Shown piece by piece: positions 6,038-23,384 of a stretch of DNA of 59,236 nt (within the stretch, counting starts at the first letter, position 1; every line of letters starts with the position of its first letter). The translations under genes were made by a program, and so were the position numbers. Source of the stretch: a bacterium (GTDB lineage: Bacteria > Hinthialibacterota > Hinthialibacteria > Hinthialibacterales > Hinthialibacteraceae); NCBI GenBank assembly GCA_963663405.2, contig CAXXSM010000047.1:1-59236 (forward strand), in the 5' to 3' direction. The notes under the pieces are model-generated. The model was not told the origin of the DNA, made no database searches, and saw only the letters and a list, made by a program, of their open reading frames with translations.

Positions 6038-8590
6038 ATGTTAAACGTTCTTTGGGCTATTCGAAATCCTTTAATAATTTTGTTTTTGCTCTTACTTTGC
6101 TCAGTGGGAAATATTCTTCATGCAGAGGAATTGATTCGTTTTGGACGGGAAACGTTGCTTCCCGACGATCCCCGCGCTCATTATAGCCGGGCGGTGAATT
6201 TCGCGCCCGGCGATGGTGAAATTTGTGCATTAAATCCACCACGGTTCCGCTGGCAATACCATCCAACCAATCCGGGGGAAGGAGGAGACTATGTTTTTAC
6301 ATTTCAAATTTCCTCTAAACCGGATTTCAGCGAATTGATTATAAATGTCCAGACCGAATTCAATTTTTACAATACGATTCCTCCGTTTCATGAGAATGGT
6401 CCTTATTATTGGCGTATTGGATATCGGAATCGATTGGAAGAGGATTCGCCTATGTCATGGAGTCAAATCCGGTCGTTTCAATTGTCGCCAGAAGCTGAAG
6501 TTTGGGATCGATCTCAAATGGCGCATCCGGATTTCGCATCCAAAGGGCATCCCCGCATTCTCTTCAATGTCAATACAATCACATCACTCCAACAAATTGT
6601 TCATACCCATCCGGACTCAAGAATTATTTTTAATCGGATTCAAAGAGATGCGGACAGAGCGCTGACAACGGATTGGTGGAAAAATTTTCCCGAAGAAGAT
6701 AAGGAAGTATGTGTAGTTCCTTATCTGGATATGGCAAGGAATCTGGTCCAAGTGGCGTTTTGCTGGCGGATAACCGGCGATCCTAAATACGCCGGGGTAT
6801 TGCAACGTGCGATACTCATGGCTCGATATCCAAAAGAGGGACGCGCATCCCCCGAAGGCGCGGGAGGAGAGAGCAACGAGGACAGCACTCAAATCACGGA
6901 ATTCCTTGGTTTACTTTATGATTGGTTGTATCCGGATCTTTCAGAAGAGGAACGGAACGATTTTGTCCATTCCCTTGATTGGCGCATTGATCACTTCGTA
7001 AACCATTTTGCATGGAGACGGCCATACAATGGACACTTGATTGTTCGAAGCGGTTCCCTTTCCACGATTGCGGCCAGTCATTCTTATGAAGGTTTTTTTG
7101 ATACCTTCACGGCAGCGTTGGCGGCTTATGAAGATTCGTCGCATGCTCGAGAATGTTTTCATCTTGGCCTCAATTACATGATCGGCGTGGGTTCTAGCCA
7201 TGGCTTTGATGAAGGATGGAATGAAGGTCCAGGTTATGGAAACAGTAAATTTGCGTGGTATGTCAATGCGATCAGCTATTTGGACAGTATTTTTCCGGAA
7301 TTCAACATGGGTAAAAATCCCTGGCTTCTCCGCATGGGTGAGTATTTCCGAGCAATTACACCAGTGGGATTGAAACATGCTCCGTGGGGGCATGGTTCGA
7401 ACCGCCAGAGTTATTATGAAAACGGACATGTACGAAGTTATCGAAAATTAGCGTACCTGACCGGCGACGGACGATTTCTCGCGAATTTTCTCCAATATGG
7501 AAATGTCAACCAGCGATTATCCCGGCCATGGATTGAATGCAGCCTCCCTGTGTGGCAACAAATGCCTGAACCAGAACTGAAAGAACAGTCTGTGCGAGTA
7601 TTCCCTCGCTCCGGATGGATAACAGCGCTTAGCGGCTCCCCATCTGATCCAAATACCTACCTCAAGGGCGTCGGTATGATCTTCGCCTGCCGTCCGCGAG
7701 GAGGATACAGCCACTCATTTTGTTCGGATAATTCCTTTCATCTTTTTGGCTATGGCGAAGATTTATCTCATGCCGCGGGAACATCGGATTATGAGCCTCA
7801 TTCATACCACAGCATGAGTCACAATACAATTCTAGTGGATGGATTGGGACAGGCACAACTCCGTGGTTTACAGAAATCTCCCTTTTACGGGCGTATTCAT
7901 GCCTTTGCGAAAAAAGACGGCGCCGTTTATTGGTGCGGAGACGCGAGCCGCTGTTATCCTCACGAACGCTTTCGTCCTCGTGAATGGTGGGGCCAACTCG
8001 CGGATATCTATTTGAAACAGGATCTGTCTTATGTAACAAAAGTCCACCGCCATGTTTTGTTTATGCGAAATAAATACTTTGTCATATTGGATGATTTGGC
8101 CGCGGATCGTCCCGCGCAGTGGACATGGCTTTACCACATATTGCACTCTGACCAAATGGAATTGGATGAAAATACTGGATCTTTTGAATATCGGATTGGA
8201 AATGTAAACATGCGGGGTGTTCACTTGTTGGGAACCGGTCAACTGCAAGTATTAAATCTGAGAGGGAAAAATGGTTTTCAGAATCCAATAACCAGAGAAG
8301 ATTACGCTGATGACCGGGGACGCGCGCGAGGAGAACGGAACATGATTGCCGAACATAATCTTTGGATCACGACACGTGAGAAACATTGCAATTGGCGATT
8401 TTTATCTGTGCTCTATCCCACTCCTTCCGAAACCGAATCTCCCGTGATCGAAAAAATCGATGATTTAACAATACGTATTCAAATGGATGATGAAACTGAT
8501 GTTATTACATTCAATCCAAATCGAGCCAATCAGGCCAATGTAGTTATTGACCTATCAGCCATTTCAACTGGAAGAAAACAAGAAAATTGA
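6038..8590 (+). CDS. DUF4962 / heparinase II/III-like polysaccharide lyase
   Basis: Signal peptide, NPPRFRW, HPRILF, GWNEGPGYG, HSFCSDNSF, SHNTILVDG motifs. Confidence 0.8.
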   Translation: MLNVLWAIRNPLIILFLLLLCSVGNILHAEELIRFGRETLLPDDPRAHYSRAVNFAPGDGEICALNPPRFRWQYHPTNPGEGGDYVFTFQISSKPDFSELIINVQTEFNFYNTIPPFHENGPYYWRIGYRNRLEEDSPMSWSQIRSFQLSPEAEVWDRSQMAHPDFASKGHPRILFNVNTITSLQQIVHTHPDSRIIFNRIQRDADRALTTDWWKNFPEEDKEVCVVPYLDMARNLVQVAFCWRITGDPKYAGVLQRAILMARYPKEGRASPEGAGGESNEDSTQITEFLGLLYDWLYPDLSEEERNDFVHSLDWRIDHFVNHFAWRRPYNGHLIVRSGSLSTIAASHSYEGFFDTFTAALAAYEDSSHARECFHLGLNYMIGVGSSHGFDEGWNEGPGYGNSKFAWYVNAISYLDSIFPEFNMGKNPWLLRMGEYFRAITPVGLKHAPWGHGSNRQSYYENGHVRSYRKLAYLTGDGRFLANFLQYGNVNQRLSRPWIECSLPVWQQMPEPELKEQSVRVFPRSGWITALSGSPSDPNTYLKGVGMIFACRPRGGYSHSFCSDNSFHLFGYGEDLSHAAGTSDYEPHSYHSMSHNTILVDGLGQAQLRGLQKSPFYGRIHAFAKKDGAVYWCGDASRCYPHERFRPREWWGQLADIYLKQDLSYVTKVHRHVLFMRNKYFVILDDLAADRPAQWTWLYHILHSDQMELDENTGSFEYRIGNVNMRGVHLLGTGQLQVLNLRGKNGFQNPITREDYADDRGRARGERNMIAEHNLWITTREKHCNWRFLSVLYPTPSETESPVIEKIDDLTIRIQMDDETDVITFNPNRANQANVVIDLSAISTGRKQEN

Positions 8591-8660: not shown

Positions 8661-10733
8661 ATGAATCGTGGAATGATATATCATACAAGCATCTCTCATC
8701 CATTGATCGTTACGCTATGGCTCGTGTTTTGTTCAACGGCTGCTGTTCATGCAGTGGGAATCGAACTTCAGAATCAGGAGCTGAGCCTCAGGCTTGATAT
8801 TGATCGGTATGGTTTACCATTTTTAGAACGGATATCCTGGCGGAAAAACGGCGACGTCATTTTCTCTGCGAAAGAATCCGGTTTTGGATTCCAGAACTGG
8901 GTAAAGAACAGTTTTCCTAACAATCCAGAGCAGAACTTATCCTCGACAAAATGGAATCTTGAAAGTGACCATCTTTATCATCGGGCTAAGGCAAGTTGTC
9001 GATTCGGACATATTGAGATTGTTACCCACTTGGATTTGGCGCGTCATGCCAACATGATCAAAACGTATATTGAAATCGTCAATCACGGATCTTTTACACA
9101 AATCGAAACCTTCCCCATTTGGTTCGCTGAGTTGACACTCCCTGGAGCGAGTGATTTGCTCTATTGGAACGCTCTCAGTTACAAACCGCAAAGGGAAAAA
9201 TTGATCCCTTCAAATCAAACAGTTCTGCATTCCAAAACCTATAGTTCCGATACGCGAGAATCTTCCGGTCAAGTGCCATTCTGGGTGTTATACGGCGAAA
9301 AGCAGGGGATTGGTTTCGGGTTGGAATGGAGTGGTGGGTGGCAGGCTGAAATTTCTATGATTGCCGCATCCATAAAATTGAATGTAACCTTGCCCCCAGA
9401 AGAGACTCAACTCAGTTTGAAGCCGGAAGAACGAATGGTCGGCCCCATACTCCAGTTCATCCCGCTAAAAGGAAGCTCAGAAATCGAGCGCCGTCAATGT
9501 TGGCTGAAAGAACGGCAAACTTTGGCTCATGCCACATGGGATATGCCTGAGCCAAGCTATCCTTTGATTTATAATCATTGGTATTCGGTTCGGTTTAATT
9601 TGAATGGAGAATTTATACGCAACCAGGTTGCGGCCATGAGTCCTTATGGGTTTGACGTTTTTGTCGTGGATGCTGGTTGGTATGCGGATGTGGGGGATTG
9701 GATACCAGATCCCCATAAATTCGAAGCCGGTGAATTTGAGTCGGCGCTTCAGATTGTGAAAGATAAGGGAATCAAGATCGGAATTTGGAGCTGTCCGTGG
9801 TTGAAACGTATCAAAAAGGAACAAACGGCGCCGGAAATCGATGAACCACCTTACATCAATAAATTTATGGACTCGTATAGCATTGACTTGGCCGGCGCCG
9901 ATTTCACAGAATTATTGAATCATCACATCACGGATCTCGAACGGCAATTTCACATCGACTGGTGGAAGTATGACCAGGAATTTTTGGGAAAGGAATCCCG
10001 TCATGGGAGAATGAAAAAAATGACAGCTCTCCAGAGCGCATTGGAGACCGTACGCCAGAATCATCCTACTCTCAGTATCGAAAGTTGCATGAGCGGAGGA
10101 CGCATGATCAATGCCTTCACTGATGCGATTGCTCAAATTCACTGGATTCGCGATGGCAGCGGCAGCGGTTACGAGCACGGACGATCGAATATTCTCGAGG
10201 CGCTTGGCGCGGCGCAATTTTTATCGCCGAATAAAGTACAGCGATGGACCAACCGCCTCAACACGATTCTTCCAGACAATCCGGAACTGTTAAAATGGTA
10301 TTGCCGGAGTTGCATGATTGGCGTGTGGGGAATATCAGCAGACATGCGCCTCATTAACAAATCCCAACAGCAAATTATTCTCCAGGAGGTTGAACACTAC
10401 CGAAAATTGAATCCAATCAAATCATCTTTATTGTATCAGATTCAATACCCAGAAGCTGACGGTAACCTAGTCTCCATCGTTTATTACGATGCAAGTAAAT
10501 GTAACGCAGCGATTCTGGTTTTCCGCTGGAATGCGAAGGGAGCGATACATGAACGCTTAAAACTCCAGGATTGGTTTCTCGACAAAGACATGGACATTAT
10601 TGATTGTGACCGAAAGACGACAGTTCATCAAACAGGTTCAAACCTTGTACGGAACGGTTTTGATATTGTCTTGCCTCCTAAACAACTCTCCAACATCTAT
10701 TTCCTGCATGCGACAAAAACTCAAGAACGATAA
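8661..10733 (+). CDS. GH36-type alpha-galactosidase
   Basis: YNHWY, FVVDAGWY, GDW, WKYD, IESCMSGG motifs. Confidence 0.82.
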   Translation: MNRGMIYHTSISHPLIVTLWLVFCSTAAVHAVGIELQNQELSLRLDIDRYGLPFLERISWRKNGDVIFSAKESGFGFQNWVKNSFPNNPEQNLSSTKWNLESDHLYHRAKASCRFGHIEIVTHLDLARHANMIKTYIEIVNHGSFTQIETFPIWFAELTLPGASDLLYWNALSYKPQREKLIPSNQTVLHSKTYSSDTRESSGQVPFWVLYGEKQGIGFGLEWSGGWQAEISMIAASIKLNVTLPPEETQLSLKPEERMVGPILQFIPLKGSSEIERRQCWLKERQTLAHATWDMPEPSYPLIYNHWYSVRFNLNGEFIRNQVAAMSPYGFDVFVVDAGWYADVGDWIPDPHKFEAGEFESALQIVKDKGIKIGIWSCPWLKRIKKEQTAPEIDEPPYINKFMDSYSIDLAGADFTELLNHHITDLERQFHIDWWKYDQEFLGKESRHGRMKKMTALQSALETVRQNHPTLSIESCMSGGRMINAFTDAIAQIHWIRDGSGSGYEHGRSNILEALGAAQFLSPNKVQRWTNRLNTILPDNPELLKWYCRSCMIGVWGISADMRLINKSQQQIILQEVEHYRKLNPIKSSLLYQIQYPEADGNLVSIVYYDASKCNAAILVFRWNAKGAIHERLKLQDWFLDKDMDIIDCDRKTTVHQTGSNLVRNGFDIVLPPKQLSNIYFLHATKTQER

Positions 10734-10757
10734 TGCCCGGATATGGCAGTAATCCGG

Positions 10758-10820
10758 TGTAAGCGGCGATCGAAAAGTGAGTAAATAAAAAGTGTAAAAA
10801 CGGCGGTCCAAATGTACATA
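10758..10820. mobile_element. Probable orphan IS21-family terminal remnant
   Basis: TGT-AAGCGGCGATCGAAAAGTGAG followed by a second CGGCGGTCCAAATGTAC box, resembling repeated transposase-binding sites of IS21 ends; no istAB nearby. Confidence 0.4.
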
Positions 10821-10936
10821 TCAACTGCGAATCGGACTACCGTTTACTATTTGACAATAAATCGAGTATAATCCCATAATTCTGTAGAATGCCTACTTCT
10901 GGTGAGTATCAGACACCAACTCAACAGGAACAAGGC

Positions 10937-10952
10937 TTTTGCATCCGTGTAC
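10937..10952 (+). repeat. attL core TTTTGCATCCGTGTAC
   Basis: Identical to 57135-57150; about 210 bp upstream of the integrase. Confidence 0.85.
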
Positions 10953-11162: not shown

Positions 11163-12279
11163 ATGAAAACACGCCGAACAGCAGGAACAGGGTGTTTATT
11201 CAAGCGTGGCCGATATTGGTATTTACGGATTAAGAAACCCGGCGGGAAAATAATCATGCGATCTCTGCGTGATCCGATTACCAATGAACGACCTACAACC
11301 AAAACTCACGCGGAAAAAATCGCCGCCGTCCTTGCCGCTGAAATATCAACCGGCGGTAAAATAGGACTCAATGGATATGACAATATTAAACTCACGAATC
11401 TAACCAAACTCGAGTGTAGTTATCGGGAAGCCTTCGAAAGCCAATGGGATATAAATCGTATCCGAAACCACACGAAGCTTATGAGTCGTTTTCAGGAACG
11501 ATTTCCTACAGTGGAAAGTATCACACACGAACGACTCGGTCAATATGTTAAAGAACGACTGTCTTCACTGACGGAAAAAACAAAAAAAACAAGTTTCTCC
11601 ATCGACAATCAACCGGGAACTCTCTGAATTAAGGCGTCTTCTCAACTGGGCTCTTCAAACAGAAAAAATCATAAAGAATCCCATGTGTGGATTCAAGTTC
11701 TTGAAAGAGACAGATCATCGTGAAAGAATACTGAATGAAGATGAAGTGGAGCGATTACTCTTCGCCTTGGATGATGAGCGGTTTGATCGGATTCGGCTGA
11801 TCGTAAAAATTGCGTTATACACAGGGATGCGACGAGGAGAGATTTTTACACTTCAATGGAATTGGACAAGTGGGAAACGTATCAACTATGTGGATTTAGA
11901 AAACAACATTTTTGATCTGCAGGATACGAAAAGTCGAAGGCGGAAAGTTCCTATTCCAACCGTTCTACTTGAAGAACTCAAAAGGAACAAAAAAGAATCT
12001 GGTTATTTATTTACATTGCTGAGAGATCCATCAAAACCGATTACTGTCATTAAGGACTTTCACAAATTATTAAAAGCGGCAAAGATAAAACGATTCAAAT
12101 TTCACGATCTTAGGCATACGGCTGCCTCCCGTATGTTGAGACGAGGGGCCGATATCCGAACCGTTCAACAGCTTTTAGGTCACAGCACGATCACGACAAC
12201 AATGCGATATCTAACCTCTCTTGATGACCAGAAACGGCAAGCGATAGAAAGTATATCCAATTTGTCTAGTAAGGATTGA
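11163..12279 (+). CDS. int: Tyrosine integrase with N-terminal arm-binding domain, split by one extra A in the A8 run at 11582-11589
   Basis: GTGCLFKRGRYWY arm-domain-like start; removing one A joins the frames (KKQVSPSTINRELSELRRLLNW) into 371 aa; catalytic R-K-HxxR-H-Y present (GMRRGE, HDLRH, LLGH, MRYL). Confidence 0.88.
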
Positions 12280-12290
12280 GGATCGGTGCG

Positions 12291-14360
12291 ATGGCAAAAC
12301 AAAAAAAGACAATTCTTAAACTTTGGGGAGTATCAAGTTATGGCGATAATCAGATCGTTCCAGAATATCTACTGGAAAAATCAACAGACGGAAAACTGTG
12401 TTTCAAAACAAATGAGTATTATTCCTTGCTAAGTGAACTAATCGGTAATAAAAAAGAATTTGAGGAATATGAAGATTGGATAGAGAGGAATTTCATCCGA
12501 ACGTTAGAAAATTTAAAAAAGGAAAGACATTACGTTGAATCGCTTTTTGCAAAATACTTGCCCCTTGGAGGATTTTCAAGGTTCCTTTTGGAATGCCTCT
12601 TCGATTTCACACGTGTTAATCAAACGAGCGATTTATGGAACGAAGAGGCCGTATATCCAGTAAGCAAGTTAGTCAGTGATCTGCAAAAAGAAGATCCAAA
12701 TAAAATGTCTGGATGGACAAAAGGAAAACCAAATAATATCCCACAGGATTTTCCAGATTTTCTAAGAGTCTTGATAGAATTCTCATCATTATCACAAAAG
12801 ACTAAACGAGTACTCAAGCACTATAAAACAAAAATAACACTACAACAGCGTTTTTTAGAGGTATATTGGTCGCTAAATGATTGGCTTGCGGAAGTATACA
12901 TAAGAATAGGAAAGTTTGACAAATTAAATGAGATTTTAGAAATCCTGCGCGATGCGAATCAAAAAGCCATGAAATGGCATTGTATATATCCAGACAATCG
13001 GATTGACCGTTGGCAGTCAGTGACTTTAAAGATCATTGAAAAAGCAAAGAAATCCATAATTGAAAATGAAGAAATCATAAATATCAAACAGAGTTGGGAA
13101 ACAGCTTTTGGTGGGTGGATTGGCAATAGTGATTCTCTTCTGGAACTGATGAAAGTAGTAAAAGCTCACGCGACAAGACTCAAAAAGGTGAGCAAGAAAC
13201 CAAAGGTTACATCTCTGTACAGCAACAGACATCTCTTAGTCCTAGGAGAAAGCGGGACCGGGAAAGAATTAGTATGTCATGCGATTGGAACACTTATTGG
13301 TAAAAAAGTATATTCAGTCAATTGTGCCAGTATTCCTGAAAATCTTGCCTATTCGGAATTATTTGGACACACTAAGGGAGCTTTCACTGGCGCCGATAGA
13401 GATAGAAAGGGATTGTTTGAAACCGCAAAAGATAATGTAATATTCCTTGATGAATTTCATCATTTAGATAAAAACATACAAGCCATGTTATTGCGAGTCG
13501 TCGAAGATAATAAATTTAATAAACTTGGATCCGATCCAAATAATTGTGAGCCAACCCAAGTGACTATCATTGCTGCTTCAAACCTATCAGTAAATAAGTT
13601 ACAAAAAAGAGTGTTACCTGATTTGTTATGGCGATTGGGTCTTAGAAATGAAATCTATGTTCCACCACTCCGGGAACGGGAATACGATCGAATGATCCTA
13701 GCAAAGAAATTGATGGACGAATATTCAATTCAAATTGAACCAACCGCGTTGTCGATGTTTTCGTCCATTCCTTTCAGCAAAGGAAACATTCGGGAAATGA
13801 GAAATCGAGTCAGCCGATTAGCGACATATCTCATATATGAAACTGATGAATCAGATACACAACGTATTATCACATTTAAAGATATTCTCAAGATATTTCC
13901 AAATGTACTTGAAGAGAATAAGAAGAGAATCTATGAAATTACAAAAGAAATGGAAGTGTGCGATGAAAAACTGAAAGATTTATCTACCAAGGAGCGAAAA
14001 CGACAAAGCAAAGATGAAAATCGCATTATTCTTGAACGAAAAATGTTCCTAATGTGTGAATTAGAAAAATACAGTCTATTGGACTACTCGGAAAACCAAT
14101 TCCCTTCCGCCATGGATACCTATATTGCATATCTTTTATTGAGTAATTCTAGTATCACCAATTCTCCAACAAGGAAGAGAGGACGCAAGACGGATGAAGA
14201 AATGAAAAAAAGGAGAAAACGTTTACTCAAAAAGCATAATGGCGATTTTCACCAAGCAGTGAAAGACGAAGAATCAATTACCGGAAAGAAGATCACACCA
14301 AAGTCTTTCTACGATTACGCGAAAGAGCATAATCTTACTCCTCTCAAGTATCCGAGTTAA
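12291..14360 (+). CDS. Sigma54-dependent enhancer-binding protein (NtrC-family AAA+) with an uncharacterised ~310-aa N-terminal domain and C-terminal Fis-like HTH
   Basis: GESGTGKE Walker A, SELFGHTKGAFTGA, FLDEF Walker B, GNIREMRN sensor II; no receiver domain recognised. Confidence 0.9.
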   Translation: MAKQKKTILKLWGVSSYGDNQIVPEYLLEKSTDGKLCFKTNEYYSLLSELIGNKKEFEEYEDWIERNFIRTLENLKKERHYVESLFAKYLPLGGFSRFLLECLFDFTRVNQTSDLWNEEAVYPVSKLVSDLQKEDPNKMSGWTKGKPNNIPQDFPDFLRVLIEFSSLSQKTKRVLKHYKTKITLQQRFLEVYWSLNDWLAEVYIRIGKFDKLNEILEILRDANQKAMKWHCIYPDNRIDRWQSVTLKIIEKAKKSIIENEEIINIKQSWETAFGGWIGNSDSLLELMKVVKAHATRLKKVSKKPKVTSLYSNRHLLVLGESGTGKELVCHAIGTLIGKKVYSVNCASIPENLAYSELFGHTKGAFTGADRDRKGLFETAKDNVIFLDEFHHLDKNIQAMLLRVVEDNKFNKLGSDPNNCEPTQVTIIAASNLSVNKLQKRVLPDLLWRLGLRNEIYVPPLREREYDRMILAKKLMDEYSIQIEPTALSMFSSIPFSKGNIREMRNRVSRLATYLIYETDESDTQRIITFKDILKIFPNVLEENKKRIYEITKEMEVCDEKLKDLSTKERKRQSKDENRIILERKMFLMCELEKYSLLDYSENQFPSAMDTYIAYLLLSNSSITNSPTRKRGRKTDEEMKKRRKRLLKKHNGDFHQAVKDEESITGKKITPKSFYDYAKEHNLTPLKYPS

Positions 14361-14452
14361 TTACTCCACTTAATTCTATCCAACAGAAAATACAAGACTT
14401 ACGCTATTACTCCACTTAATAAAATTCCACTCCACCTATTACTCTACTTAAT
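14361..14452 (+). promoter_or_regulatory. Repeated TTACTCCACTTAAT boxes, candidate upstream activator sequences
   Basis: Exact copies at 14361 and 14407, a 1-mismatch copy at 14439, degenerate copies at 14427 and 14335. Confidence 0.6.
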
Positions 14453-14463
14453 TCAGAATATCT

Positions 14464-14492
14464 CATAACCTACTGTAAATAAATAACTTATA
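14464..14492. promoter_or_regulatory. IHF-like binding site between the UAS boxes and the sigma54 promoter
   Basis: AATAAATAACTTA has one mismatch to WATCAANNNNTTR; 23/29 identical to 57090-57118. Confidence 0.5.
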
Positions 14493-14507
14493 GTGATCCT
14501 ATGTGCG

Positions 14508-14524
14508 TTGGCATACAACCTGCT
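14508..14524 (+). promoter_or_regulatory. Sigma54 (-24/-12) promoter
   Basis: TTGGCATACAACCTGCT: GG 14510-11, exactly 10 nt, GC 14522-23; GGAGG RBS at 14553 and ATG at 14566 downstream. Confidence 0.75.
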
Positions 14525-14565
14525 TTATGATCCAAAAAGAAATCAAATCGACGGAGGAGACCATA

Positions 14566-14766
14566 ATGAATCCGCATGAACCCGCTTTTCCATTTTGGTT
14601 AAAGATGAAAGATGTCGCTAGTATCACCCAACTGAGCCTTTCGTCCATTAAGCGATTTGCCGCTGAAGGTCGGATAGATTCTAATTGCGGAAGAAAATTT
14701 GGGAAATCTTGGCGGTTTAAGCGAGACATTATTCTAAATGAGGGATTAATTCTAACTAAACAGTGA
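14566..14766 (+). CDS. Excisionase-like / AlpA-MerR-type HTH DNA-binding protein
   Basis: 66 aa, WLKMKDVASITQLSLSSIKRFAAEGRI...KFGKSWRF; strong RBS. Confidence 0.75.
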   Translation: MNPHEPAFPFWLKMKDVASITQLSLSSIKRFAAEGRIDSNCGRKFGKSWRFKRDIILNEGLILTKQ

Positions 14767-15824
14767 AACCGCACAGGCATGTGAGAATCAAAATATTTAT
14801 CATCATGGTTGAGATTAAATCTGTGAAAAAGGAACGGACGATCTTCCTCCCGGTATCGACTTTCAAAAAACTTTGTGAAAAGTTTACGTCACCAGGAGTA
14901 ATTCTTACGTATATTGCGCTCAAATCCTTTGCAGACCGAAACGGCCATTGCAATCCACTGATTTCTACCCTGATGGAAATGACGAAAACTAAAGAGCGTA
15001 CGATCCAGGATCACATCAAAGAGCTAAAAAAATACGGATTTATTCGAGTGAAATTAAACAAAGGACATTCCGCGAGTGATTACTACCTATTAGTAACGGA
15101 GAGAGGCGTGGATTCACGCGCCTCTACAAATCAAGAGAGACACGCGGGAAATCGCGCCTCTGAAGCCGAGAGAGGCGCAGATTCCCGCGAGAGAGGCGCG
15201 GTGGACCGTGGGGTTAACAGTTATGAACAGTTAAAAAGCTTTAACAATACTGACGGAACGGAAAAAAAGAAAAAAAACAAGTCATTGGAGAAGGCCACAA
15301 AGTCAGAGGATTTCGAAGCGAATTTCGAAGAAGTTTACAGGGCATATCCACAGAAAGGACGGAAACAGCGAGCGCGTGATCAATACAAGGCGGCACTCAA
15401 ATTGATATCTCATGCGGAACTCCTCAAAGCCGTCAAAGATTACAACGAGTCTCCATACGTCCAAAGCCGGATTAACGATCCGGAAAATAAAAAATACATT
15501 CCTCTCTTCGTCAATTGGTTGAAAGACTGCTCATGGGAGGCTGAGGAACGGGATCGATGGAATAACGCGGCGCCGGGTTGGAAACCTCCAGAAAAAAAAT
15601 ATACCGCAGATGAACAGCGGGAGATTATCCGGGGGAAAATACGCGCTCAGATATTCGAGGAATTAGCCGAATGCATGAAAATCGTAACGGAGCCGTCACG
15701 CCTTCTGGAGCGGATGGGCAACCGTCCTGACGTATACGATAGACTGAGATTAATCGACGGCACAACGGAGTTATCAGCATTCGTGGAATTCGCCGCCGGA
15801 TTGGGGGTGAAAATCGATGGCTGA
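14763..15824 (+). CDS. Phage-type replication initiator (N-terminal wHTH)
   Basis: wHTH (LTYIALKSFADRNGHCNP...RTIQDHIKELKKYGFI), repetitive linker, FEEVYRAYPQK...NWL C-terminal domain; overlaps dnaB start; may start at ATG 14805. Confidence 0.75.
   Translation: MKPHRHVRIKIFIIMVEIKSVKKERTIFLPVSTFKKLCEKFTSPGVILTYIALKSFADRNGHCNPLISTLMEMTKTKERTIQDHIKELKKYGFIRVKLNKGHSASDYYLLVTERGVDSRASTNQERHAGNRASEAERGADSRERGAVDRGVNSYEQLKSFNNTDGTEKKKKNKSLEKATKSEDFEANFEEVYRAYPQKGRKQRARDQYKAALKLISHAELLKAVKDYNESPYVQSRINDPENKKYIPLFVNWLKDCSWEAEERDRWNNAAPGWKPPEKKYTADEQREIIRGKIRAQIFEELAECMKIVTEPSRLLERMGNRPDVYDRLRLIDGTTELSAFVEFAAGLGVKIDG
15099..15280. repeat. Iteron-like repeats and AT-rich tract inside the initiator gene (putative origin)
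   Basis: Four GAGAGAGGCGyG-like units, partly paired with inverted CGCGCCTCT, then AACAGTTA x2 and an A-rich tract. Confidence 0.6.
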
Positions 15825-17157
15825 GAAAATCCCCCCACACAACTCCCAAGCAGAAATTAAACTCCTCGGCTCGTGTCTGCGCTGTAACGCCGATGGCTTC
15901 GCGGAAACGGAAGCCATTCTCCGGGCGCGGAATCTCGATCTCAAACCAGAAGATTTCTACGAGCCGAAACACGGGACGATATACCTCGCACTCTGCGGCA
16001 TGGCGGAGCGGCGCGAGGAAATTACATTAACCGCTCTCGGCGATTGCCTGGAGCGATCCGGGAATCTCCAACGGGTTGGCGGCGCGTACTATCTCATCGA
16101 GTTGGCGCAGTCGGTCGCAACCTCGGCCAATGTCGAGTACTGGTCCAAGATCGTCCTCGAATGCGCACAACGCCGGAATCTTATCCGGAGTTGTCAGGAG
16201 ACGATCACGCAGACGTACGCGGCGGAGTCAACCGAGGAATTAATCTCCGCACACCAATCCCGTATCCATGCGATTCTCGGACGCGCTGACGGCAAGCGCG
16301 GACTCAAGCCGATAGGCGACACACTACCGGAGGCCATCGAGAGTATCCAAGCGCGGAGCGAGAATCTGTACGGGGGCCGGGCGGCCTGCGACGGGATATC
16401 TACCGGCTTGATCGATCTCGATCGCAAGATTGGCGGCCTGGGCCGGGGCCGTCAAATTGTCCTCGCGGCGCGGCCATCTGAGGGAAAGACGAGTCTCGGC
16501 GCACAGATCGCCGCTCATGCGGCGCGGTCTGGAAACCATGTCTGTGTCTTCTCATTGGAAATGTCCAACCAAGAGTTGACAGAACGAATTCTCTCGAACG
16601 TGGCCGAGGTAAATATCAGGCAGGCGCTTGATATTGCGAAATCTACGCGGCTGCTCAACGCCGAGAAACTCGCCAAGGACTGGGAGTTGTACATTGACGA
16701 CTCTCCATTGCAGATCGAAAAGATTGAGTCACGGGCGCAGCGTCAGGCGCTTATCAAGCAAATTGATTTGATCGTGGTTGATTATCTGCAACTCTCTGAG
16801 ACGAGTCACACACACAAGCGCTATGAGGCCGTCACGTTGATATCCCGACGTTTGAAACTCCTCGCCAAGGAGTTGAATTGTCCGATTCTGACGCTCTCAC
16901 AATTGAATCGGGAGAGCGAAAAAAATAACGAGCCGCCAAAACTGTCCAACCTGCGAGACAGCGGCGCCATCGAGCAGGACGCGGATCAAGTGCTATTTAT
17001 CCACGCGCCGGACGGCAATGACAAGCGGGAGTCCGGGACGCGAGAAATTATCGTGGCCAAGAACAGGCACGGGCCGATAGGCCAAATTGATTTATATTTC
17101 CGCAAGGATTTAACGCGGTTTGAACCGCTCAGTGATCGAGAGGAGGAAATAATCTAA
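15817..17157 (+). CDS. dnaB: Replicative DNA helicase, phage/element-type DnaB
   Basis: PPHNSQAE N-terminus, AARPSEGKT, FSLEM, VVDYLQL, LSQLNR, LRDSGAIEQDAD, KNRHGP. Confidence 0.95.
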   Translation: MAEKIPPHNSQAEIKLLGSCLRCNADGFAETEAILRARNLDLKPEDFYEPKHGTIYLALCGMAERREEITLTALGDCLERSGNLQRVGGAYYLIELAQSVATSANVEYWSKIVLECAQRRNLIRSCQETITQTYAAESTEELISAHQSRIHAILGRADGKRGLKPIGDTLPEAIESIQARSENLYGGRAACDGISTGLIDLDRKIGGLGRGRQIVLAARPSEGKTSLGAQIAAHAARSGNHVCVFSLEMSNQELTERILSNVAEVNIRQALDIAKSTRLLNAEKLAKDWELYIDDSPLQIEKIESRAQRQALIKQIDLIVVDYLQLSETSHTHKRYEAVTLISRRLKLLAKELNCPILTLSQLNRESEKNNEPPKLSNLRDSGAIEQDADQVLFIHAPDGNDKRESGTREIIVAKNRHGPIGQIDLYFRKDLTRFEPLSDREEEII

Positions 17158-17366
17158 TGGAGACGCTGAAAGTCTTTTGCAAAAAATGTAAACGATTTCT
17201 TTCCACCGCCCGGCGCGGGTCACAAGTCCATTGTCCTTCATGCGGTGAATACTCAACCGCCGGGATCGGGCAACGGGCCGAAATACCGGACTTGGTTGAG
17301 ATGGCCAAGATGGGCAGACAACGAAAGAGGAAGCGGAATCGAATGTCTGTTTGCATATTTGCATGA
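17157..17366 (+). CDS. Small Zn-ribbon protein
   Basis: CKKC...CPSC; translationally coupled to dnaB. Confidence 0.6.
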   Translation: METLKVFCKKCKRFLSTARRGSQVHCPSCGEYSTAGIGQRAEIPDLVEMAKMGRQRKRKRNRMSVCIFA

Positions 17367-17393
17367 AAATAACCAATGAAAGGACGAACAACC

Positions 17394-17738
17394 ATGAAAA
17401 ATATTTCTATGAAAACCGATGGAAACAGTGTTCAGATAACGATTAACTTGGAGAATGAATGTATGTCTAATGGTTCATCTGATCGAGAATTAATCCCTTC
17501 CGTTTCTAGATTCGATCCCCGTATTCCGGCTTTCGATTATCTCGTAGGTAATAAATGCGAACATCCAGATTCGATTGTTAGGAATACATGGTTAAAGGTG
17601 ATTGGTTGGCCGTACAGCGATCAAGCCGCGTTCGCTTTGCAGGTTGGAATATTAATCAAGAATGGAATCCTTGAGCCGGAAGCATGTAAATATACATATG
17701 AGGGGATGACAATCAGTACACCATCTTTGAAAAGATGA
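17394..17738 (+). CDS. Hypothetical protein
   Basis: GAAAGGA RBS; N-terminus similar to the 18111 ORF. Confidence 0.6.
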   Translation: MKNISMKTDGNSVQITINLENECMSNGSSDRELIPSVSRFDPRIPAFDYLVGNKCEHPDSIVRNTWLKVIGWPYSDQAAFALQVGILIKNGILEPEACKYTYEGMTISTPSLKR

Positions 17739-17744
17739 ACGATC

Positions 17745-17954
17745 ATGAAAAACAATGGAAAAAAGAAACTGATCTCGAAACCCGCTTTCCCAAAACTGAT
17801 CGAGGTTCGATGCTCAAGATGCGAGCACGTTTTGTGTTCCGCGCCGGTTGGAGCGCGTGTGTGTTGTGAAGACTGCCATCGCTGGCATATCGTGAAAGAC
17901 TGCGATGGGAAACTCCTTGTTTTTGAGTGGAAGCCTGACGCGCCTAAAGAATAA
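17745..17954 (+). CDS. Small Zn-ribbon protein
   Basis: CSRC...CEDC; paralogous to the 17157 ORF. Confidence 0.6.
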   Translation: MKNNGKKKLISKPAFPKLIEVRCSRCEHVLCSAPVGARVCCEDCHRWHIVKDCDGKLLVFEWKPDAPKE

Positions 17955-18110
17955 CCAGAAATCGCCGGGAAGGCGCTAAATCTTCGCCCTGTTGGATGTT
18001 TGGTATTTTTCCGATGAATGAGCCGCGCAAAACAGGAAACGCCGTGCACGCGCAACGAGCAGACATTTTAGTGAGTGTAATTTGAATCGGCATTGAAAGG
18101 ATGAAAGATC

Positions 18111-18299
18111 ATGAAGAATGTAGGAATGATAGTTGATGGAGACGTTCTACGAATCGAGATCAATCTTACGAAAGAATGTGGACTTTCAAAGTCCGGGAAA
18201 ACCACCATTGTAGCAACCACCGCCGGAAATGTTCCTTTGCCAAACAGAGAAAACATTAAGATTGGGCTGAATTGTTTTAAACCGTTGGACCGGGAGTGA
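18111..18299 (+). CDS. Small conserved hypothetical protein
   Basis: MKNV...INLTKECGLSKSGKTTIVATTAGN...IGLN resembles a ~60-aa uncharacterised family recalled from memory; RBS present. Confidence 0.65.
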   Translation: MKNVGMIVDGDVLRIEINLTKECGLSKSGKTTIVATTAGNVPLPNRENIKIGLNCFKPLDRE

Positions 18300-18356
18300 T
18301 TTTTATATCAAAGTACTTTATATTAAAAAGCATATTCCTTGACAACCTCCCCCAGG

Positions 18357-18533
18357 ATGTCGACATCATCCCAATACCATATCGATACGAACCCCATATC
18401 AACCCCATACCATATCGATATCAACACCATATCAACCCCATATCGATATCAACCCCATATCGATATCAACACCATACCATATCGACACTATGTGGACATC
18501 ATCCCCTCAAGGGGCCCCCTATAGGGGCCCCCC
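18357..18533. repeat. CCATATC(GATATCAAC) repeat array plus GC-rich near-palindrome
   Basis: Seven CCATATC copies (18377-18483) between ATGT(C/G)GACATCATCCC direct repeats; GGGGCCCCCTATAGGGGCCCC at 18511. Confidence 0.8.
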
Positions 18534-19048
18534 AGTCACAAACAGAAAAAAAACCAAAAATCCCCCGTTGACTTCCATTTCCCTCAAAAACTATCTCCCC
18601 CCAAGGGTGTACGAAATAAATATGGGTAAAAGATCATCCAGTAGTTCGTGAAGCCCAATAATCATCTCATTCACTACTGAGTAAACAACATCCCAGGGTA
18701 ATATAAATCGCCACATCTCCGAGGACCACCTGACGTTTCGTTTGAGCCAATCCAGTCCAAACCACTTCTGCAAATAGGTCTTTCCCAAACTCTTCAGCCG
18801 TCTCGATCAAACCAGAATAAGTTGTCAAATCCAAATTCCGTTATTGTATATATTTATTATAACAAATCATAATACTACCATTATATCGTTTTTTAATACA
18901 TATAATTATATATTCAAAATTCAATGCTTGATTTAGAAAATTAGTTTTTGAATAATTGAAATTGTCATACGATAGACCGATATACATACACTAAAAAATC
19001 TAAAAAAATCCGCAGAGGTGTAATTAACACATAAACCATCGATCCAAA

Positions 19049-19106
19049 GGGGGGGCGGGGGGGTCGATTCCTAGAGAACAACGGATATATAATCCGTTGT
19101 TCTCTA
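19049..19106. repeat. G7-C-G7 tract and perfect 15-bp inverted repeat
   Basis: TAGAGAACAACGGAT-ATATA-ATCCGTTGTTCTCTA at 19072-19106. Confidence 0.8.
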
Positions 19107-19482
19107 TCTCATAACATATTGATATATAAAGACTTACGAATCTTTGAAATAGGCATAGAATAGGGGGATTAATAGATTGATTGTTCACATATATACATTC
19201 ATCGATGATAGGTATTAATTGTGCATATGCTCATAACATTACCCAAATAGACTCCAAATAGCCCACAAATAGGGTGTTAATAAGCCCTTATTTCCCCGTT
19301 GTTTGCATCATATTTCCATTTTTCCTATAGTATTGACCGCGTGCGTTCAGGATGATACTAAATGGTTTAATAACTATCAAATAGTTGTTAAATAGGCAAT
19401 ATATATGTTGACTTTTGTAATTTGTTCATGATAGGATAGGGTTGTAGTTGAGGGAAATATAGAGATTGAAGGAGTAGGAACG

Positions 19483-20121
19483 ATGAGACTAACTGAGGAG
19501 TACAGACCAAGAACTTGGTCCGAAGTTTTGGCCCAAGACAAGGCAATTGAACGCATCAAACGAATTGGGAAACGCGGCTACGGCGGTAGAGCGTTTTGGA
19601 TATCCGGTCAATCGGGGACTGGAAAGACAACTCTAGCCTATCTCATCGCAGAGGAAATAGCGGACGGCTGGAGTATTCACGAACTGGACGCGGGAGAGAT
19701 GACCGTTAGCCGGTTGAAGTCAATCGAATCGGATATGAACCATCTCGCCTTGGGTAAAGGCGGGAAAGCGTATCTCATTAATGAGGCGCATGGTCTCCGG
19801 AAGGAAGCAATACGGCAATTGCTTGTCATGCTTGAACGTCTTCCGTCTCATGTCTGTGTTGTTTTTACTACAACGTGTGAAGGTGAAGAGAAACTTTTTG
19901 AAGACTATGACGATTCATCACCATTAATAAGCCGTTGCGCGCATATAAAACTAGCAAGGCGGGATCTTACAAAACCATTCGCCGAACGCGCGCAATTCAT
20001 AGCACAGGAAAACGGCTTAGATGGAAAACCTTTAGCATCCTATATCAAACTAGCGCAGAAGCATCGAAACAACATGAGAGCGGTCCTGCAAGCAATTGAA
20101 GCCGGTGAGATGATGGATTAA
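19483..20121 (+). CDS. Clamp-loader/RarA-clade AAA+ ATPase
   Basis: [14 protein letters not shown]-terminus, [14 protein letters not shown] (degenerate Walker B), SRC arginine finger. Confidence 0.8.
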
Positions 20122-20173
20122 TTCAGTCTTGTTTTAAGTCTGTTTAAAACCTATTTCAAAGGAGTGAAGGACA

Positions 20174-20413
20174 ATGAAGGAAAAAAGAGATTACACGGTT
20201 ATCGCAGAAGGAAACTCTCAGGGAGATTACGTTACTTGCCTTTATTCTGCTGAATACGATTGGGTTATGGAATGGGCGCGATTTGCTTCACGATATTATG
20301 GGAATGTTCCCGTTACTGTCCTTGAAACTATTTCCCGTGAACCCTATCGATCAAAACAAGTTGGTTCAATTGAACCGAGTAACGAGCCTCTTTTTGAATT
20401 TCCAGTAATCTAA
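20174..20413 (+). CDS. Hypothetical protein
   Basis: RBS and operon context. Confidence 0.6.
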   Translation: MKEKRDYTVIAEGNSQGDYVTCLYSAEYDWVMEWARFASRYYGNVPVTVLETISREPYRSKQVGSIEPSNEPLFEFPVI

Positions 20414-20426
20414 AGGAGAAAAAATC

Positions 20427-20837
20427 ATGTACAGATTAATCATAACAAGAAGTATTGTTGCGAGTGATGGGGAAGGGCGAGAGGTTATGACTGAAAAGAA
20501 AGACCTCGATTTCGATTTAGATACTTGTATTACTTGTGGGAGAGTCTTGGTAAATGATCAATTCGTAAGAAGGGTAAAGGTTGTTGATCCTAAAAATGAG
20601 ATCATTGTTCGATGGGATTCATGGTTGGCTAAATTGATTCAACGATGCAATGGGCGTGAATTGGAAATCTCGAACACGAAAATAGAATCAATTTACCATC
20701 TGCACAAACGAGCTTTTAAATCGAGAGACGAGATTTTAAGAGAAGGAAAAGAATTGAATCGCGTTGACTGGGTGATGGTATATCCAAACGGCACAGAAAA
20801 CCATGTCTGCGCGATGAATAATGGTATTCCAGTATAA
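20427..20837 (+). CDS. Hypothetical protein
   Basis: AAGGAG RBS and operon context. Confidence 0.65.
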   Translation: MYRLIITRSIVASDGEGREVMTEKKDLDFDLDTCITCGRVLVNDQFVRRVKVVDPKNEIIVRWDSWLAKLIQRCNGRELEISNTKIESIYHLHKRAFKSRDEILREGKELNRVDWVMVYPNGTENHVCAMNNGIPV

Positions 20838-20858
20838 AACAATTGTAATACAAAAATA

Positions 20859-20901
20859 TCCCCAGGGAGACACTCCCGGCAAGGATCGCGCTCCCTGGGG
20901 A
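20859..20901. promoter_or_regulatory. 11-bp stem hairpin upstream of ardC
   Basis: TCCCCAGGGAG ... CTCCCTGGGGA. Confidence 0.45.
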
Positions 20902-20929
20902 ACCACCAAAGAAAGGCGGTAACCATATT

Positions 20930-21829
20930 ATGAAAGCGAAACGGAAAGAAAACAAGGATATTTATCAAATCGTGACAGACCGAATCATCGAGAAACTAGA
21001 GCAAGGCGTCATTCCCTGGAATAAGCCCTGGACCGCCGGAGGAGCGCCACAAAACCTCATCAGCAAAAAAGAGTATCGCGGTATTAATATCTTTCTGCTG
21101 GACTGCGCCGGTTACTCCTTCCCCTATTTCTTGACATACAAACAAGCCCAGAATCGAGGCGGAAACGTCCGGAAGGGAGAAAAGGGCTTTCCCGTCGTGT
21201 TCTGGAAGATGGTCCAGAAAAAGAAATCCCCGGACGATCCAGGACCGCGCCCCGGAGAAGTCAGCACGAAAGAAGATACATTCCCCGTCCTGCGGTATTA
21301 CACGGTTTTCAACGTCGAACAATGCGATGGGATTGAGTATCCTGCAGACTGGGAGCGGAGACCGCTCAATCCAATCCCCGAAGCGGAACGAATCATCCAA
21401 GGTATACCCAACCGACCAGAGATCAAACACGAACAGCAACGCGCTTGCTATTCACCTTGGTTCGATTATGTCAACATGCCTGATAAAGAATCCTTTCTCA
21501 GCGATGAGTCATACTATCAAGTACTCTTCCACGAATTAACTCACTCCACCGGTCACGAAAGCCGCTTGAAGCGCGAAGGAATCACAGATCCCACATTCTT
21601 TGGAAGCCATAAGTATTCGAAAGAAGAATTAATCGCCGAAATGGGCGCCGCGATGCTCTGCGGAACCTGCGGAATTGAGAATAGCACGATAGACAACTCA
21701 GCCGCTTATATTCAATCATGGCTTGGGAGACTACGTAACGACAAGAAGTTATTGGTCCATGCCGCTGGACAAGCGCAGAAGGCCGCCGATTTCATCCTGA
21801 ATCGGAAATGGGAGGAAAACGAATCATGA
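20930..21829 (+). CDS. ardC: ArdC-family antirestriction protein (DUF1738 ssDNA-binding + zincin domain)
   Basis: VTDRIIEKLEQGVIPWNKPW, YRGIN, VRKGEKG, VFNVEQ, HELTH, EELIAEMG, AAYIQSWL. Confidence 0.92.
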   Translation: MKAKRKENKDIYQIVTDRIIEKLEQGVIPWNKPWTAGGAPQNLISKKEYRGINIFLLDCAGYSFPYFLTYKQAQNRGGNVRKGEKGFPVVFWKMVQKKKSPDDPGPRPGEVSTKEDTFPVLRYYTVFNVEQCDGIEYPADWERRPLNPIPEAERIIQGIPNRPEIKHEQQRACYSPWFDYVNMPDKESFLSDESYYQVLFHELTHSTGHESRLKREGITDPTFFGSHKYSKEELIAEMGAAMLCGTCGIENSTIDNSAAYIQSWLGRLRNDKKLLVHAAGQAQKAADFILNRKWEENES

Positions 21830-22332
21830 AATATCACGTTGACATTCACTTAATTCTTCCGGACCTCAAGTATCCGAACAAGGTTATCGATTTACCATTT
21901 ATTGAATCGAATCCCGAATTCTTAAATTATTGTTTTGAGCATCTAAGCGCCTCTATTTCCATATGGACTGGTGGCCGGTCATTCGGTTTAGTAAATTCGA
22001 TCCCGGAAACTTATATCGCAATTCAACGCGCAATCAACGTAGAAAAACAACGGAAACGAGCGGAGCATTGGGAGCAGTACAAATGTATTGGCCTTACTCG
22101 ATATGGTTTTCCTAAAGATGCGCTTTGGTTAACGGAAATAACAACTACAGAAGACGCAATCACTTTCTACGGGAAAGGCTCTGTTATGGCCGAAATCATC
22201 CATCAAGAAGGAGATAAGCCTTTCGTCCTATACTATCACGAATCGGGAAATCTACACGCTATAAAAACGTTTAGGGATGACGGCGCAGAGTTTGAACATG
22301 CTTGTAAAGTAGTCGCTAAATACTGGAACTAA
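21826..22332 (+). CDS. Hypothetical protein
   Basis: ATGA overlap with the ardC stop. Confidence 0.6.
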   Translation: MKYHVDIHLILPDLKYPNKVIDLPFIESNPEFLNYCFEHLSASISIWTGGRSFGLVNSIPETYIAIQRAINVEKQRKRAEHWEQYKCIGLTRYGFPKDALWLTEITTTEDAITFYGKGSVMAEIIHQEGDKPFVLYYHESGNLHAIKTFRDDGAEFEHACKVVAKYWN

Positions 22333-22339
22333 AAAAACA

Positions 22340-22365
22340 ATGGGGGCCGGTTCGCCGGTCCCCAT
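22340..22365 (-). terminator. GC-rich hairpin, terminator-like on the minus strand
   Basis: ATGGGGGCCGG-TTCG-CCGGTCCCCAT; T-run follows on the minus strand. Confidence 0.45.
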
Positions 22366-22380
22366 ATAAGGAAATCTAAA

Positions 22381-22536
22381 ATGAACCGAACCCAGATTAA
22401 AGAAATCATAGAAGACCGGCAGTGGTTCGTCCTTGAAATGTACGCGACGGGCCGGATAAACACACTGGAAGCAGACGGGCGCTTGAAGGAACTTAGTTGG
22501 ATCACCCGGCTCTTGGGAAAGGAAAAGGAAGCATGA
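22381..22536 (+). CDS. 51-aa hypothetical protein (below ORF-track cutoff)
   Basis: AAGGA RBS; MNRTQIKEIIEDRQWF...; stop overlaps the recombinase ATG (ATGA). Confidence 0.55.
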   Translation: MNRTQIKEIIEDRQWFVLEMYATGRINTLEADGRLKELSWITRLLGKEKEA

Positions 22537-23384
22537 AAAAACTAGTAAAGTTAGTCGCCGCCTACCGAACCACATTCGGTGGGAGGTGGAACAAACAACG
22601 TTCGATCCATAATGCAACCTGCATGGAACGGTTCTGCAAACGATTTCCCAACATCAAAGATATTTCACACGAAGGCCTAGCTGGTTACGTTGCTGACCGA
22701 CAAACCAGTTCAAAACGGGGAAGCATTCGCTCAGACGGGACAATCAATCGAGAGTTAAGCGAATTAAATCGCGTTCTCAATTGGGGAGTGATCGCCGGGA
22801 AGATCGACCGTAATCCCATGAAGGGCTTCGGACTCCTGAAAGAACCGAAACATCGAGAACGAATACTATCGCCCGATGAAATGCGGAAGGTATTTAAATG
22901 CGTGGAAGCGTTCGATTCCGATTTCCGTCTCATCGTGAAGATCGCTCTGCGCCTGGGACTACGCTTCGGAGAAATCGTTTCACTGAAGTGGATTCATGTT
23001 GATGAACTCAATCGGCAATTAATTCTACTCAACACGAAACACGGTCACAGGAAGGTTCCGGTTCCCGATGACCTTTGGTATGAATTGAAAAGGCCAGAGA
23101 AGCGTTCCGAGTGGGTTTTCCCGGCGCCGAACGGTCCCGAATCCCATTTGAAAAGTGTTCGCCATCCGTTTGCTCGATTATTAAAGGAGAGTGGGATACA
23201 ATCGCTTCACTTTCACGATCTTCGCCACACGGCAGCGACTTATATGCTCAAAAACGGCGCAGATATCAAGACCGTTCAAGAAATTCTCGGTCATACCGAC
23301 GTAAAAACCACGATGCGCTATCTAAATCCTTTGGAAGAAACAAAGCGTTCCGCCCTGGAATGGACGAAAGCCGAAGGATTATAA
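22533..23384 (+). CDS. Second tyrosine recombinase, lacking the arm-binding domain
   Basis: 283 aa; TINRELSEL, GLRFGE, HDLRH, ILGH, MRYL. Confidence 0.9.
   Translation: MKKLVKLVAAYRTTFGGRWNKQRSIHNATCMERFCKRFPNIKDISHEGLAGYVADRQTSSKRGSIRSDGTINRELSELNRVLNWGVIAGKIDRNPMKGFGLLKEPKHRERILSPDEMRKVFKCVEAFDSDFRLIVKIALRLGLRFGEIVSLKWIHVDELNRQLILLNTKHGHRKVPVPDDLWYELKRPEKRSEWVFPAPNGPESHLKSVRHPFARLLKESGIQSLHFHDLRHTAATYMLKNGADIKTVQEILGHTDVKTTMRYLNPLEETKRSALEWTKAEGL

Follow-up and report, generated by a model that had tools for sequence, protein, structure and literature searches.

A putative sigma-54 enhancer switch upstream of the xis-rep-dnaB genes of a small integrative element

The regulator gene, its control region and the operon downstream

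The window analysed here is a whole bacterial contig of 59,236 bases (C47), belonging to a genome of 8.44 Mb in 170 contigs whose assembly is 82% complete. It carries an integrative element of about 13 kb, in which the gene for a bacterial enhancer-binding protein (bEBP) is followed by a short control region and by the genes of a Xis-like protein, a replication initiator and a replicative helicase. An earlier note on this DNA had taken the arrangement for a sigma-54 enhancer switch governing excision and replication of the element. The features of the locus are the following.

12291 (ATG) to 14360 (stop), plus strand: bEBP open reading frame (ORF), 689 amino acids
12291–13190, plus strand: N-terminal ~300 residues of the bEBP, presumed sensor or regulatory domain, no family match
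13215–13637, plus strand: AAA+ sigma-54 interaction domain of the bEBP (PF00158; alignment with NtrC-family structures)
14172–14357, plus strand: C-terminal tail of the bEBP, with a basic RKRGRK (AT-hook-like) motif and then three short helices
14361–14452, plus strand: putative upstream activating boxes, direct repeats of TTACTCCACTTAAT, three strong and one weak, with a second weak copy at 14335
14466–14490, no strand: AT-rich block with IHF-like matches, its position kept in three copies
14508–14524, plus strand: predicted sigma-54 type promoter, TTGGCAT-ACAAC-CTGCT, start predicted near 14534–14536
14553–14559, plus strand: ribosome-binding site (RBS) GGAGGAG, preceding the xis ATG at 14566
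14566–14766, plus strand: Xis/AlpA-like HTH_17 protein, 66 residues
14763–15824, plus strand: replication initiator Rep (HTH_36; phrog_270 'replication initiation'; lambda O/DnaD-like)
15817–17157, plus strand: DnaB-type replicative helicase, clear by both Pfam and PHROGs

Residues 309–449 of the bEBP match the Pfam family Sigma54_activat with an E-value of 1.7e-38, and about 210 residues align with the Aquifex NtrC-family structures 3dzd and 4l4u (E down to 3.7e-36). The GAFTGA loop is intact at residues 363–368 (nt 13377–13394), as the earlier note had claimed, and the translation also carries Walker A (GESGTGKE), Walker B (FLDEF) and sensor II (GNIREMRN). With NCBIfam, all equivalog scores of the full protein stayed far under the cut-offs. 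Compared with the paralogue on contig C15, the N-terminal domain has a dN/dS of 0.27, the AAA+ core one of 0.22 and the C-terminal part one of 0.40, all three values indicating purifying selection. Phage records contained only generic bEBP cores, mostly on contigs that look bacterial.

The N-terminal domain has no Pfam or NCBIfam match and contains no receiver, GAF, PAS, V4R or CARF domain. Three very large protein searches returned only the C15 paralogue and one metagenomic fragment of 139 residues; an alignment of the domain had no match in viral_contigs, and ESM Atlas gave no usable match. Within the phylum its relatives are confined to proteins of one genome, G010. An AlphaFold2 (AF2) model built from an alignment of three rows consisted entirely of helices, with a mean pLDDT (predicted local distance difference test) of 45, too poor for a fold search. 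The domain is nearly an orphan and a candidate new sensor module. The C-terminal region was modelled with a mean pLDDT of 69.5, the three tail helices reaching block means of 76–87 (fragment residues 121–170, approximately residues 633–682 of the protein), and the tail is presumably a DNA-binding helix-turn-helix (HTH). The NtrC-type DNA-binding domain 2m8g, which came out of Foldseek at rank 11 with an E-value of 3.4, was not taken as evidence for this assignment.

Exact copies of TTACTCCACTTAAT start at 14361 and 14407 and a copy with one mismatch at 14439, while weaker copies lie at 14335, within the coding end of the bEBP gene, and at about 14427. The boxes span about −174 to −83 relative to the predicted start near 14535, in agreement with the four to five boxes reported earlier some 80–175 bp upstream. 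On both strands of the genome the exact 14-mer occurs three times, always at the C47 locus or its C15 paralogue; when two or fewer mismatches are allowed the genome holds 49 matches, three of them within the 92-bp stretch on C47.

The predicted promoter consists of TTGGCAT (14508–14514), the spacer ACAAC and CTGC (14520–14523), with GG at 14510–14511 and GC at 14522–14523, and is situated 43 nt upstream of the xis ATG; the correctly spaced GG-N10-GC box of the earlier note is therefore present. The pattern TGGCA[CT]-N5-[CT]TGC has 21 matches on both strands of the genome, three of which precede the three xis homologues. Such a match is expected by chance about 4e-4 times per 300 nt of one strand, compared with about 0.03 and 0.003 for matches at 8 and 9 of the 10 positions. 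A further promoter-like match, on contig C3, was considered as a fourth copy and rejected: it lies downstream of a GyrA-like ORF (read from the N-terminus) and is accompanied by no xis homologue. No sigma-70-like promoter was found by a scan of the 205-bp intergenic region (14361–14565), the consensus of the scan being of the E. coli type, which may not suit this phylum. As for the proposed IHF site, a match with one mismatch is present at 14478–14490, but the consensus is perfect only in the copy on contig C6, and the C47 site homologous to that one has two mismatches, so that this part of the earlier description is only weakly borne out.

Of the proposed RBS and xis-rep-dnaB series, the RBS, Rep and DnaB stand, whereas the first gene product is an HTH_17 protein below the Pfam cut-off; homologues of it score 30.3 bits on C6 and 42.4 bits in genome G025. 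It has no PHROG match, and its alignment found only distant HTH proteins in genome_contigs, metagenome_contigs and viral_contigs, none of them with a −24/−12 element or a bEBP within the 450 nt upstream that were inspected. The rep gene contains four internal iteron-like direct repeats of about 22 nt (15099–15210), which likely represent an origin inside the gene. An origin within the initiator gene is the lambda O/ori arrangement.

Copies of the locus in the same genome and in related genomes

The genome contains three xis copies, located on C47, C15 and C6. The sister element on C15 is shorter, about 7 kb, and has the same gene order as that on C47. Its bEBP is 70% identical to that of C47 with the GAFTGA loop intact, and its control region holds three TTACTCCACTTAAT-type boxes and the promoter TTGGCAT-GCTTT-CTGCA. 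The two intergenic regions agree at 128 of 177 ungapped positions; in the promoter all 11 defining bases (TTGGCAT and CTGC) are identical but only one of the five spacer bases. The bEBP, xis, rep and dnaB ORFs are intact.

Contig C6 starts within a third bEBP gene and holds no more than its 89 C-terminal residues, which are 43% identical to the C47 tail. They are followed by four to five copies of (G/T)ATCTACAWAAT, a box that differs from those of C47 and C15, and then by a perfect IHF consensus, TTGGCAT-ACTTT-CTGCTTTAT, an RBS and the xis homologue. The replication gene differs as well, being a D5-type primase-helicase followed by SSB. In an alignment of five tails the last helix reads ITPKSFYDYA in both C47 and C15 and is quite different in C6. 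From the comparison of the three copies, which are not independent of one another, it follows that the −24/−12 elements are fixed (kept in 3 of 3, with a varying spacer) while the boxes change together with the bEBP tail.

The boxes could alternatively be replication iterons or arm-type sites of Int and Xis, the promoter match then being a coincidence, and both their orientation as direct repeats, usual for iterons and arm sites, and their place just upstream of the xis-rep module would suit such a role. Rep iterons are unlikely because C47 and C15 have the same boxes although their Rep proteins are only 34% identical, and because separate, differing arrays of three to four direct ~22-nt repeats lie inside each rep gene (for C15 at 6665–6776, locus L013). 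Arm-type sites fit poorly with boxes about 3.4 kb from the element end, and with Xis proteins of C47 and C6 that are 56% identical despite completely different boxes; the low chance expectation of the promoter match argues against coincidence. This explanation appears highly improbable, and by the same comparisons the boxes evidently track the bEBP rather than Rep.

The copies also form a mosaic: between C47 and C15 the int region is about 91% identical in DNA, dS is about 0.5 for the bEBP gene and about 2 for xis, and rep and dnaB are saturated, while positions 18776–23631 of C47 are 92% identical to C6. The cassette of regulator and control region seems to move between replication modules.

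Related loci were sought in a collection of 35 species of the phylum, the own genome included. The evidence is confined to this single small phylum; outside the own genome it comes from three loci in two genomes, G025 from a different family and G010 from another genus of the same family. A G025 contig of 1,980 nt carries a partial bEBP-like gene with 40% identity to the AAA+ core, which ends in KRRGRKK and a weak HTH_8 match (E 0.002, under the cut-off). Behind it lie two perfect 21-nt direct boxes, TTGGTAT-N5-TTGCA, a xis homologue (E 5.9e-23) and an O-like Rep. On contig C1 of G010, a bEBP of 576 residues with intact GAFTGA shows 39% identity from residue 184, in the N-terminal region, to residue 510, the AAA+ core included. 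Downstream of it lies TGGAAC-N5-TTGCT, 110 nt ahead of a block of primase-polymerase, PolA and integrase genes. In a second G010 relative (contig C6 of that genome, locus L031; 745 residues, 11838–14075, minus strand) the loop reads GSHNSA instead of GAFTGA, and the tail carries a canonical AT-hook, KKRGRPRS. An insertion sequence (IS) separates this relative from four direct boxes and TGGCAT-N5-TTGCT, which lie upstream of a helicase, PolA and integrase block; the relative is a copy in decay or, alternatively, a variant that works independently of sigma-54. At the two G010 loci the promoter matches thus stand 60–110 nt before primase-polymerase or helicase modules, and repeat boxes are present at two of the three external loci (G025 and the second G010 locus). 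The layout of bEBP, promoter and xis/rep genes, for which the earlier note had proposed a search in homologous loci, therefore recurs, with the −24/−12 element kept in C15, C6, G025 and both G010 loci. The parts of the locus, their order and their conservation are clear from these comparisons.

Proposed switch, alternative explanations and known systems

The locus is fairly likely to be a real sigma-54/bEBP induction switch of the xis-rep-dnaB operon of the element. We infer from the sequence comparisons that the operon depends on sigma-54, that the bEBP binds the boxes and is gated by its N-terminal domain, and that excision and replication are the output. The bEBP, encoded just upstream of the promoter, would probably be co-transcribed with the integrase, both at a low level, and its N-terminal domain would keep it inactive pending a signal; N-terminal inhibition is established for bEBPs of the NtrC1, DctD and XylR types. 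Until the element's own bEBP acts, the promoter at 14508–14524 would remain silent. The activated protein would bind the box array through its AT-hook-like and HTH tail and assemble there into an oligomer. DNA looping, possibly aided by a protein of the IHF/HU type, would bring it to the closed complex of the sigma-54 holoenzyme, which it would open by ATP hydrolysis through the GAFTGA loop. The early operon would then yield the Xis/AlpA-like protein, Rep with its internal origin, DnaB and probably further gene products, leading to excision and replication. Nine genes of the HU/IHF family are present in the genome.

In this scheme the activator and the sites it binds would come from the element, and sigma-54 from the host. 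Exactly one copy of rpoN was found in each of 20 out of 20 relatives searched, and the own genome has 36 Sigma54_activat matches; judging from these genes, the host lineage uses sigma-54. Searches of the own assembly with PF04552, PF04963 and, by tblastn, the RpoN of a relative did not find rpoN. In view of the relatives and of the many activator matches, the most economical reading is that it lies in the unassembled part. The description of the switch as self-contained was nevertheless too strong, since the element needs a host sigma-54 whose gene is not in the incomplete assembly.

Several observations besides the missing rpoN weigh against a working switch of this kind. In the bEBP itself, leucine replaces the first arginine of the FRxDLxxRL motif, the tail has no Pfam HTH match, HTH_8 included, and Foldseek of the C-terminal model against PDB gave nothing at E ≤ 0.001. 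The boxes are direct, not inverted, repeats, which is unusual for sites of Fis-type HTH dimers. The GAFTGA loop is absent in two of the five family members with a visible loop (GAYSDA in G025 and GSHNSA in G010). The HTH_17 score of the C47 xis product is 23 bits, under the 27-bit cut-off, and the product might act as a regulator instead of a directionality factor, the HTH_17 family also including AlpA-type regulators. Genomes G005 and G003 contain xis homologues without an upstream bEBP, so that a bEBP switch would be one option among related elements. Finally, no terminator-like site was detected by a scan between the bEBP gene and xis, and in C47 as in C15 the integrase gene adjacent to the bEBP gene carries a frameshift, whose position differs between the two.

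With no terminator-like site detected between the two genes, transcripts of the bEBP gene could also run on into xis. It is conceivable that the operon is expressed mainly in this way, or from an unrecognised housekeeping-type promoter, the bEBP boosting it or regulating another target and the −24/−12 element being minor. The E. coli-type consensus of the sigma-70 scan leaves room for such a promoter, and a strong sigma-70-like site at the left junction is directed into the integrase and bEBP genes. Yet three copies keep the −24/−12 element while their spacers vary, the element recurs in G025 and G010, and a change in the bEBP tail is accompanied by a change in the repeat boxes. An origin of expression of this kind is quite unlikely.

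The frameshifted integrases mean that the elements are possibly immobile, and they might be decaying relics whose bEBP and promoter have ceased to control excision, being inactive or put to some other use by the host. In C47 the frame changes at an A6-C-A8 run at about 11576–11590 (A8 at about 11583–11590), as judged from a three-frame reading and comparison with C15, and in C15 at about 10087–10130 (locus L013). The missing rpoN, the degenerate loop of G025 and, in the second G010 locus, the lost GAFTGA loop and the IS between regulator and promoter would agree with decay. However, both copies have uninterrupted bEBP ORFs, whose dN/dS is about 0.3 in every domain, and xis, rep and dnaB are intact too. 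The homopolymeric site of the C47 frameshift, together with the other broken genes of the assembly, fits assembly error, and a contig of sequencing run X1 covering 11406–12682 differs from the window by one gap, its position not given. With several genes of the assembly broken, among them other bEBP genes that are split or contain stops, the frameshifts are not interpretable and could be assembly errors or real decay. We consider a relic unlikely.

The interpretation as an induction switch is partly supported, in that the enhancer architecture recurs and Pfam recognised no cI/Cro-type regulator among the scanned ORFs. It is weakened by the dependence on host sigma-54, the poor IHF site, the HTH_17 character of the presumed xis and the frameshifted integrase, and the gating by the N-terminal domain in response to a helper phage or stress, as the earlier note proposed it, would be conjecture. 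A broader version of it is doubtful: sigma-54 closed-complex silence would serve as a lysogeny-like off state across a family of replicons, with the N-terminal domain sensing a helper phage or host stress, and tail and boxes would co-diversify into orthogonal groups, C6 firing independently and C47 and C15 cross-activating. Such specificity groups would resemble the immunity groups of phages.

With the NtrC family (3dzd, 4l4u and 1ny6; PspF, NorR and RtcR) the C47 protein shares the AAA+ core, GAFTGA, Walker A and B and sensor II, as well as the three-part layout, with a presumed regulatory N-terminus, an AAA+ core and a presumed DNA-binding C-terminus. It differs in its matchless N-terminus, in a tail not recognised as HTH_8, and in its location on a mobile element, which would also be its target. 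Among integrative and conjugative elements (ICEs), CTnDOT encodes RteB, which has an NtrC-type central domain and is a response regulator with a paired kinase, acting through a second activator, RteC. The likeness lies in an element-encoded activator that drives excision genes, and the passages considered of two papers (PMC5812530, PMC3809561) indicate that such an activator, not repressor loss, begins the cascade to the excision operon. The C47 bEBP, by comparison, has no receiver domain (no Response_reg match) and no kinase among the neighbouring ORFs, its −24/−12 promoter stands directly before xis-rep-dnaB, and the element is small, without recognisable conjugation genes.

Lambda CI/Cro and Stl of the phage-inducible chromosomal islands are repressor switches, whereas SXT, through SetCD, and ICEclc are activator-driven ICEs. 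The C47 regulator occupies the same position and role as those of phages, satellites and ICEs, lying between int and the xis/replication module and presumably deciding between quiescence and excision with replication. It differs from the phage and satellite switches in that no XRE/CI-like repressor was recognised by Pfam and in the proposed off state, closed-complex silence, and on state, an ATP-driven activator. The TOL-plasmid XylR is a plasmid-borne bEBP that controls cargo catabolic operons, not mobility or replication. A bEBP gene carried by a mobile element also has a precedent in phage phi1422, for which the passage considered lists an uncharacterised sigma-54 type regulator gene (PMC3391216). 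In the portion considered of the 2017 ICE review (PMC5812530), RpoN appears only in a reference title and no sigma-54-dependent circuit is described. A literature search of a limited full-text collection found no paper describing bEBP control of excision or replication of a mobile element. The earlier statement that no characterised family is regulated in this way therefore stands as far as that collection goes, with the qualification that bEBPs borne by mobile elements have precedent; since precedents exist for the parts (the CTnDOT cascade, the phi1422 regulator and XylR), the switch is not a new category.

Mobile elements are generally described as held by repressors or induced via sigma-70-type activators. 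If the proposed reading is true, the choice between staying integrated and excising to replicate would here be built differently, on a sigma-54 promoter of near-zero basal activity and an ATP-driven activator private to the element. The layout is compact, comprising one gene and a 205-bp control region with at least two natural specificities in one genome, and is for these reasons testable in a heterologous host and a potential source of orthogonal tight switches. The ligand or partner of the orphan N-terminal domain would reveal the trigger of the element.

Boundaries, gene content and surroundings of the element

By comparison with C15, the element ends at about 10.87–10.95 kb and about 24.0 kb. 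Its remaining features are listed below.

10888–10950, no strand: left junction, ~63-nt segment common to C47, the C15 element and an unrelated site on contig C110
11151–12279 (11151–11627 and 11683–12279), plus strand: tyrosine integrase in two frames (Phage_integrase 3.5e-30, second piece)
17157–24004, plus strand: remainder of the element, small ORFs without matches and then the genes below; right end at about 24004
19483–20121, plus strand: clamp-loader-like AAA ATPase (Pfam/PHROGs)
20930–21829, plus strand: ArdC anti-restriction protein (Pfam/PHROGs)
22497–23384, plus strand: second integrase (Pfam/PHROGs)

Of the genes expected of a phage satellite, those for an integrase, a Xis-like protein, Rep and a helicase are present. 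Among the scanned ORFs of the element, many of which are small and without matches, Pfam and PHROGs recognised no terminase, capsid or packaging genes and no relaxase, type IV secretion or conjugation genes, and Pfam recognised no cI/Cro- or XRE-type regulator. ArdC is the sole hint at transfer as single-stranded DNA. The element is best described, from its gene content, as a small integrative replicon that would replicate itself.

At the left junction, similarity to C110 stops near 10950 and similarity to C15 begins near 10867–10888, and the segment 10888–10950 probably belongs to the target or to the att side. Comparison of the two element ends gave no exact repeat of at least 8 nt as an att core. 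The window from 10813 to 10950 is 85% identical to positions 79156–79290 of C110, and the sigma-70-like site of the junction, TTGACA-18-CATAAT at 10851–10880, points into the element. The junction may represent a target locus that is present in repeated copies and from whose promoter transcription enters the integrase and bEBP genes. Rfam and ARAGORN found no RNA genes in the window, left junction included. A contig of sequencing run X2 spans 10575–10952, and its record runs on for about 700 nt outside the window. Contigs from four sequencing runs, which are low-depth DNA contigs and uninformative on excision and expression, contained no joint across the element ends.

To the right of the element, a type IIG restriction-methyltransferase (26239–33035) seems to be split by nested insertion sequences into a nuclease side (26239–27471) and a methylase (30576–33035). 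Between the two pieces lies an ISAZ013-family transposase (27475–27834 and 29007–29597), itself interrupted by an IS1-like element (27836–28929). The methylase is adjoined by a fusion of a PLD/HKD nuclease and an SNF2 helicase (33969–36314; PADLOC C3a139 'HKD+Snf2', 1.3e-48), and this neighbourhood, beyond the element, probably represents a defence island. In a low-GC part of the contig lie two very large ORFs, one of 1,897 residues at 42414–48107 (minus strand) and one of 1,987 residues at 50926–56889 (plus strand).

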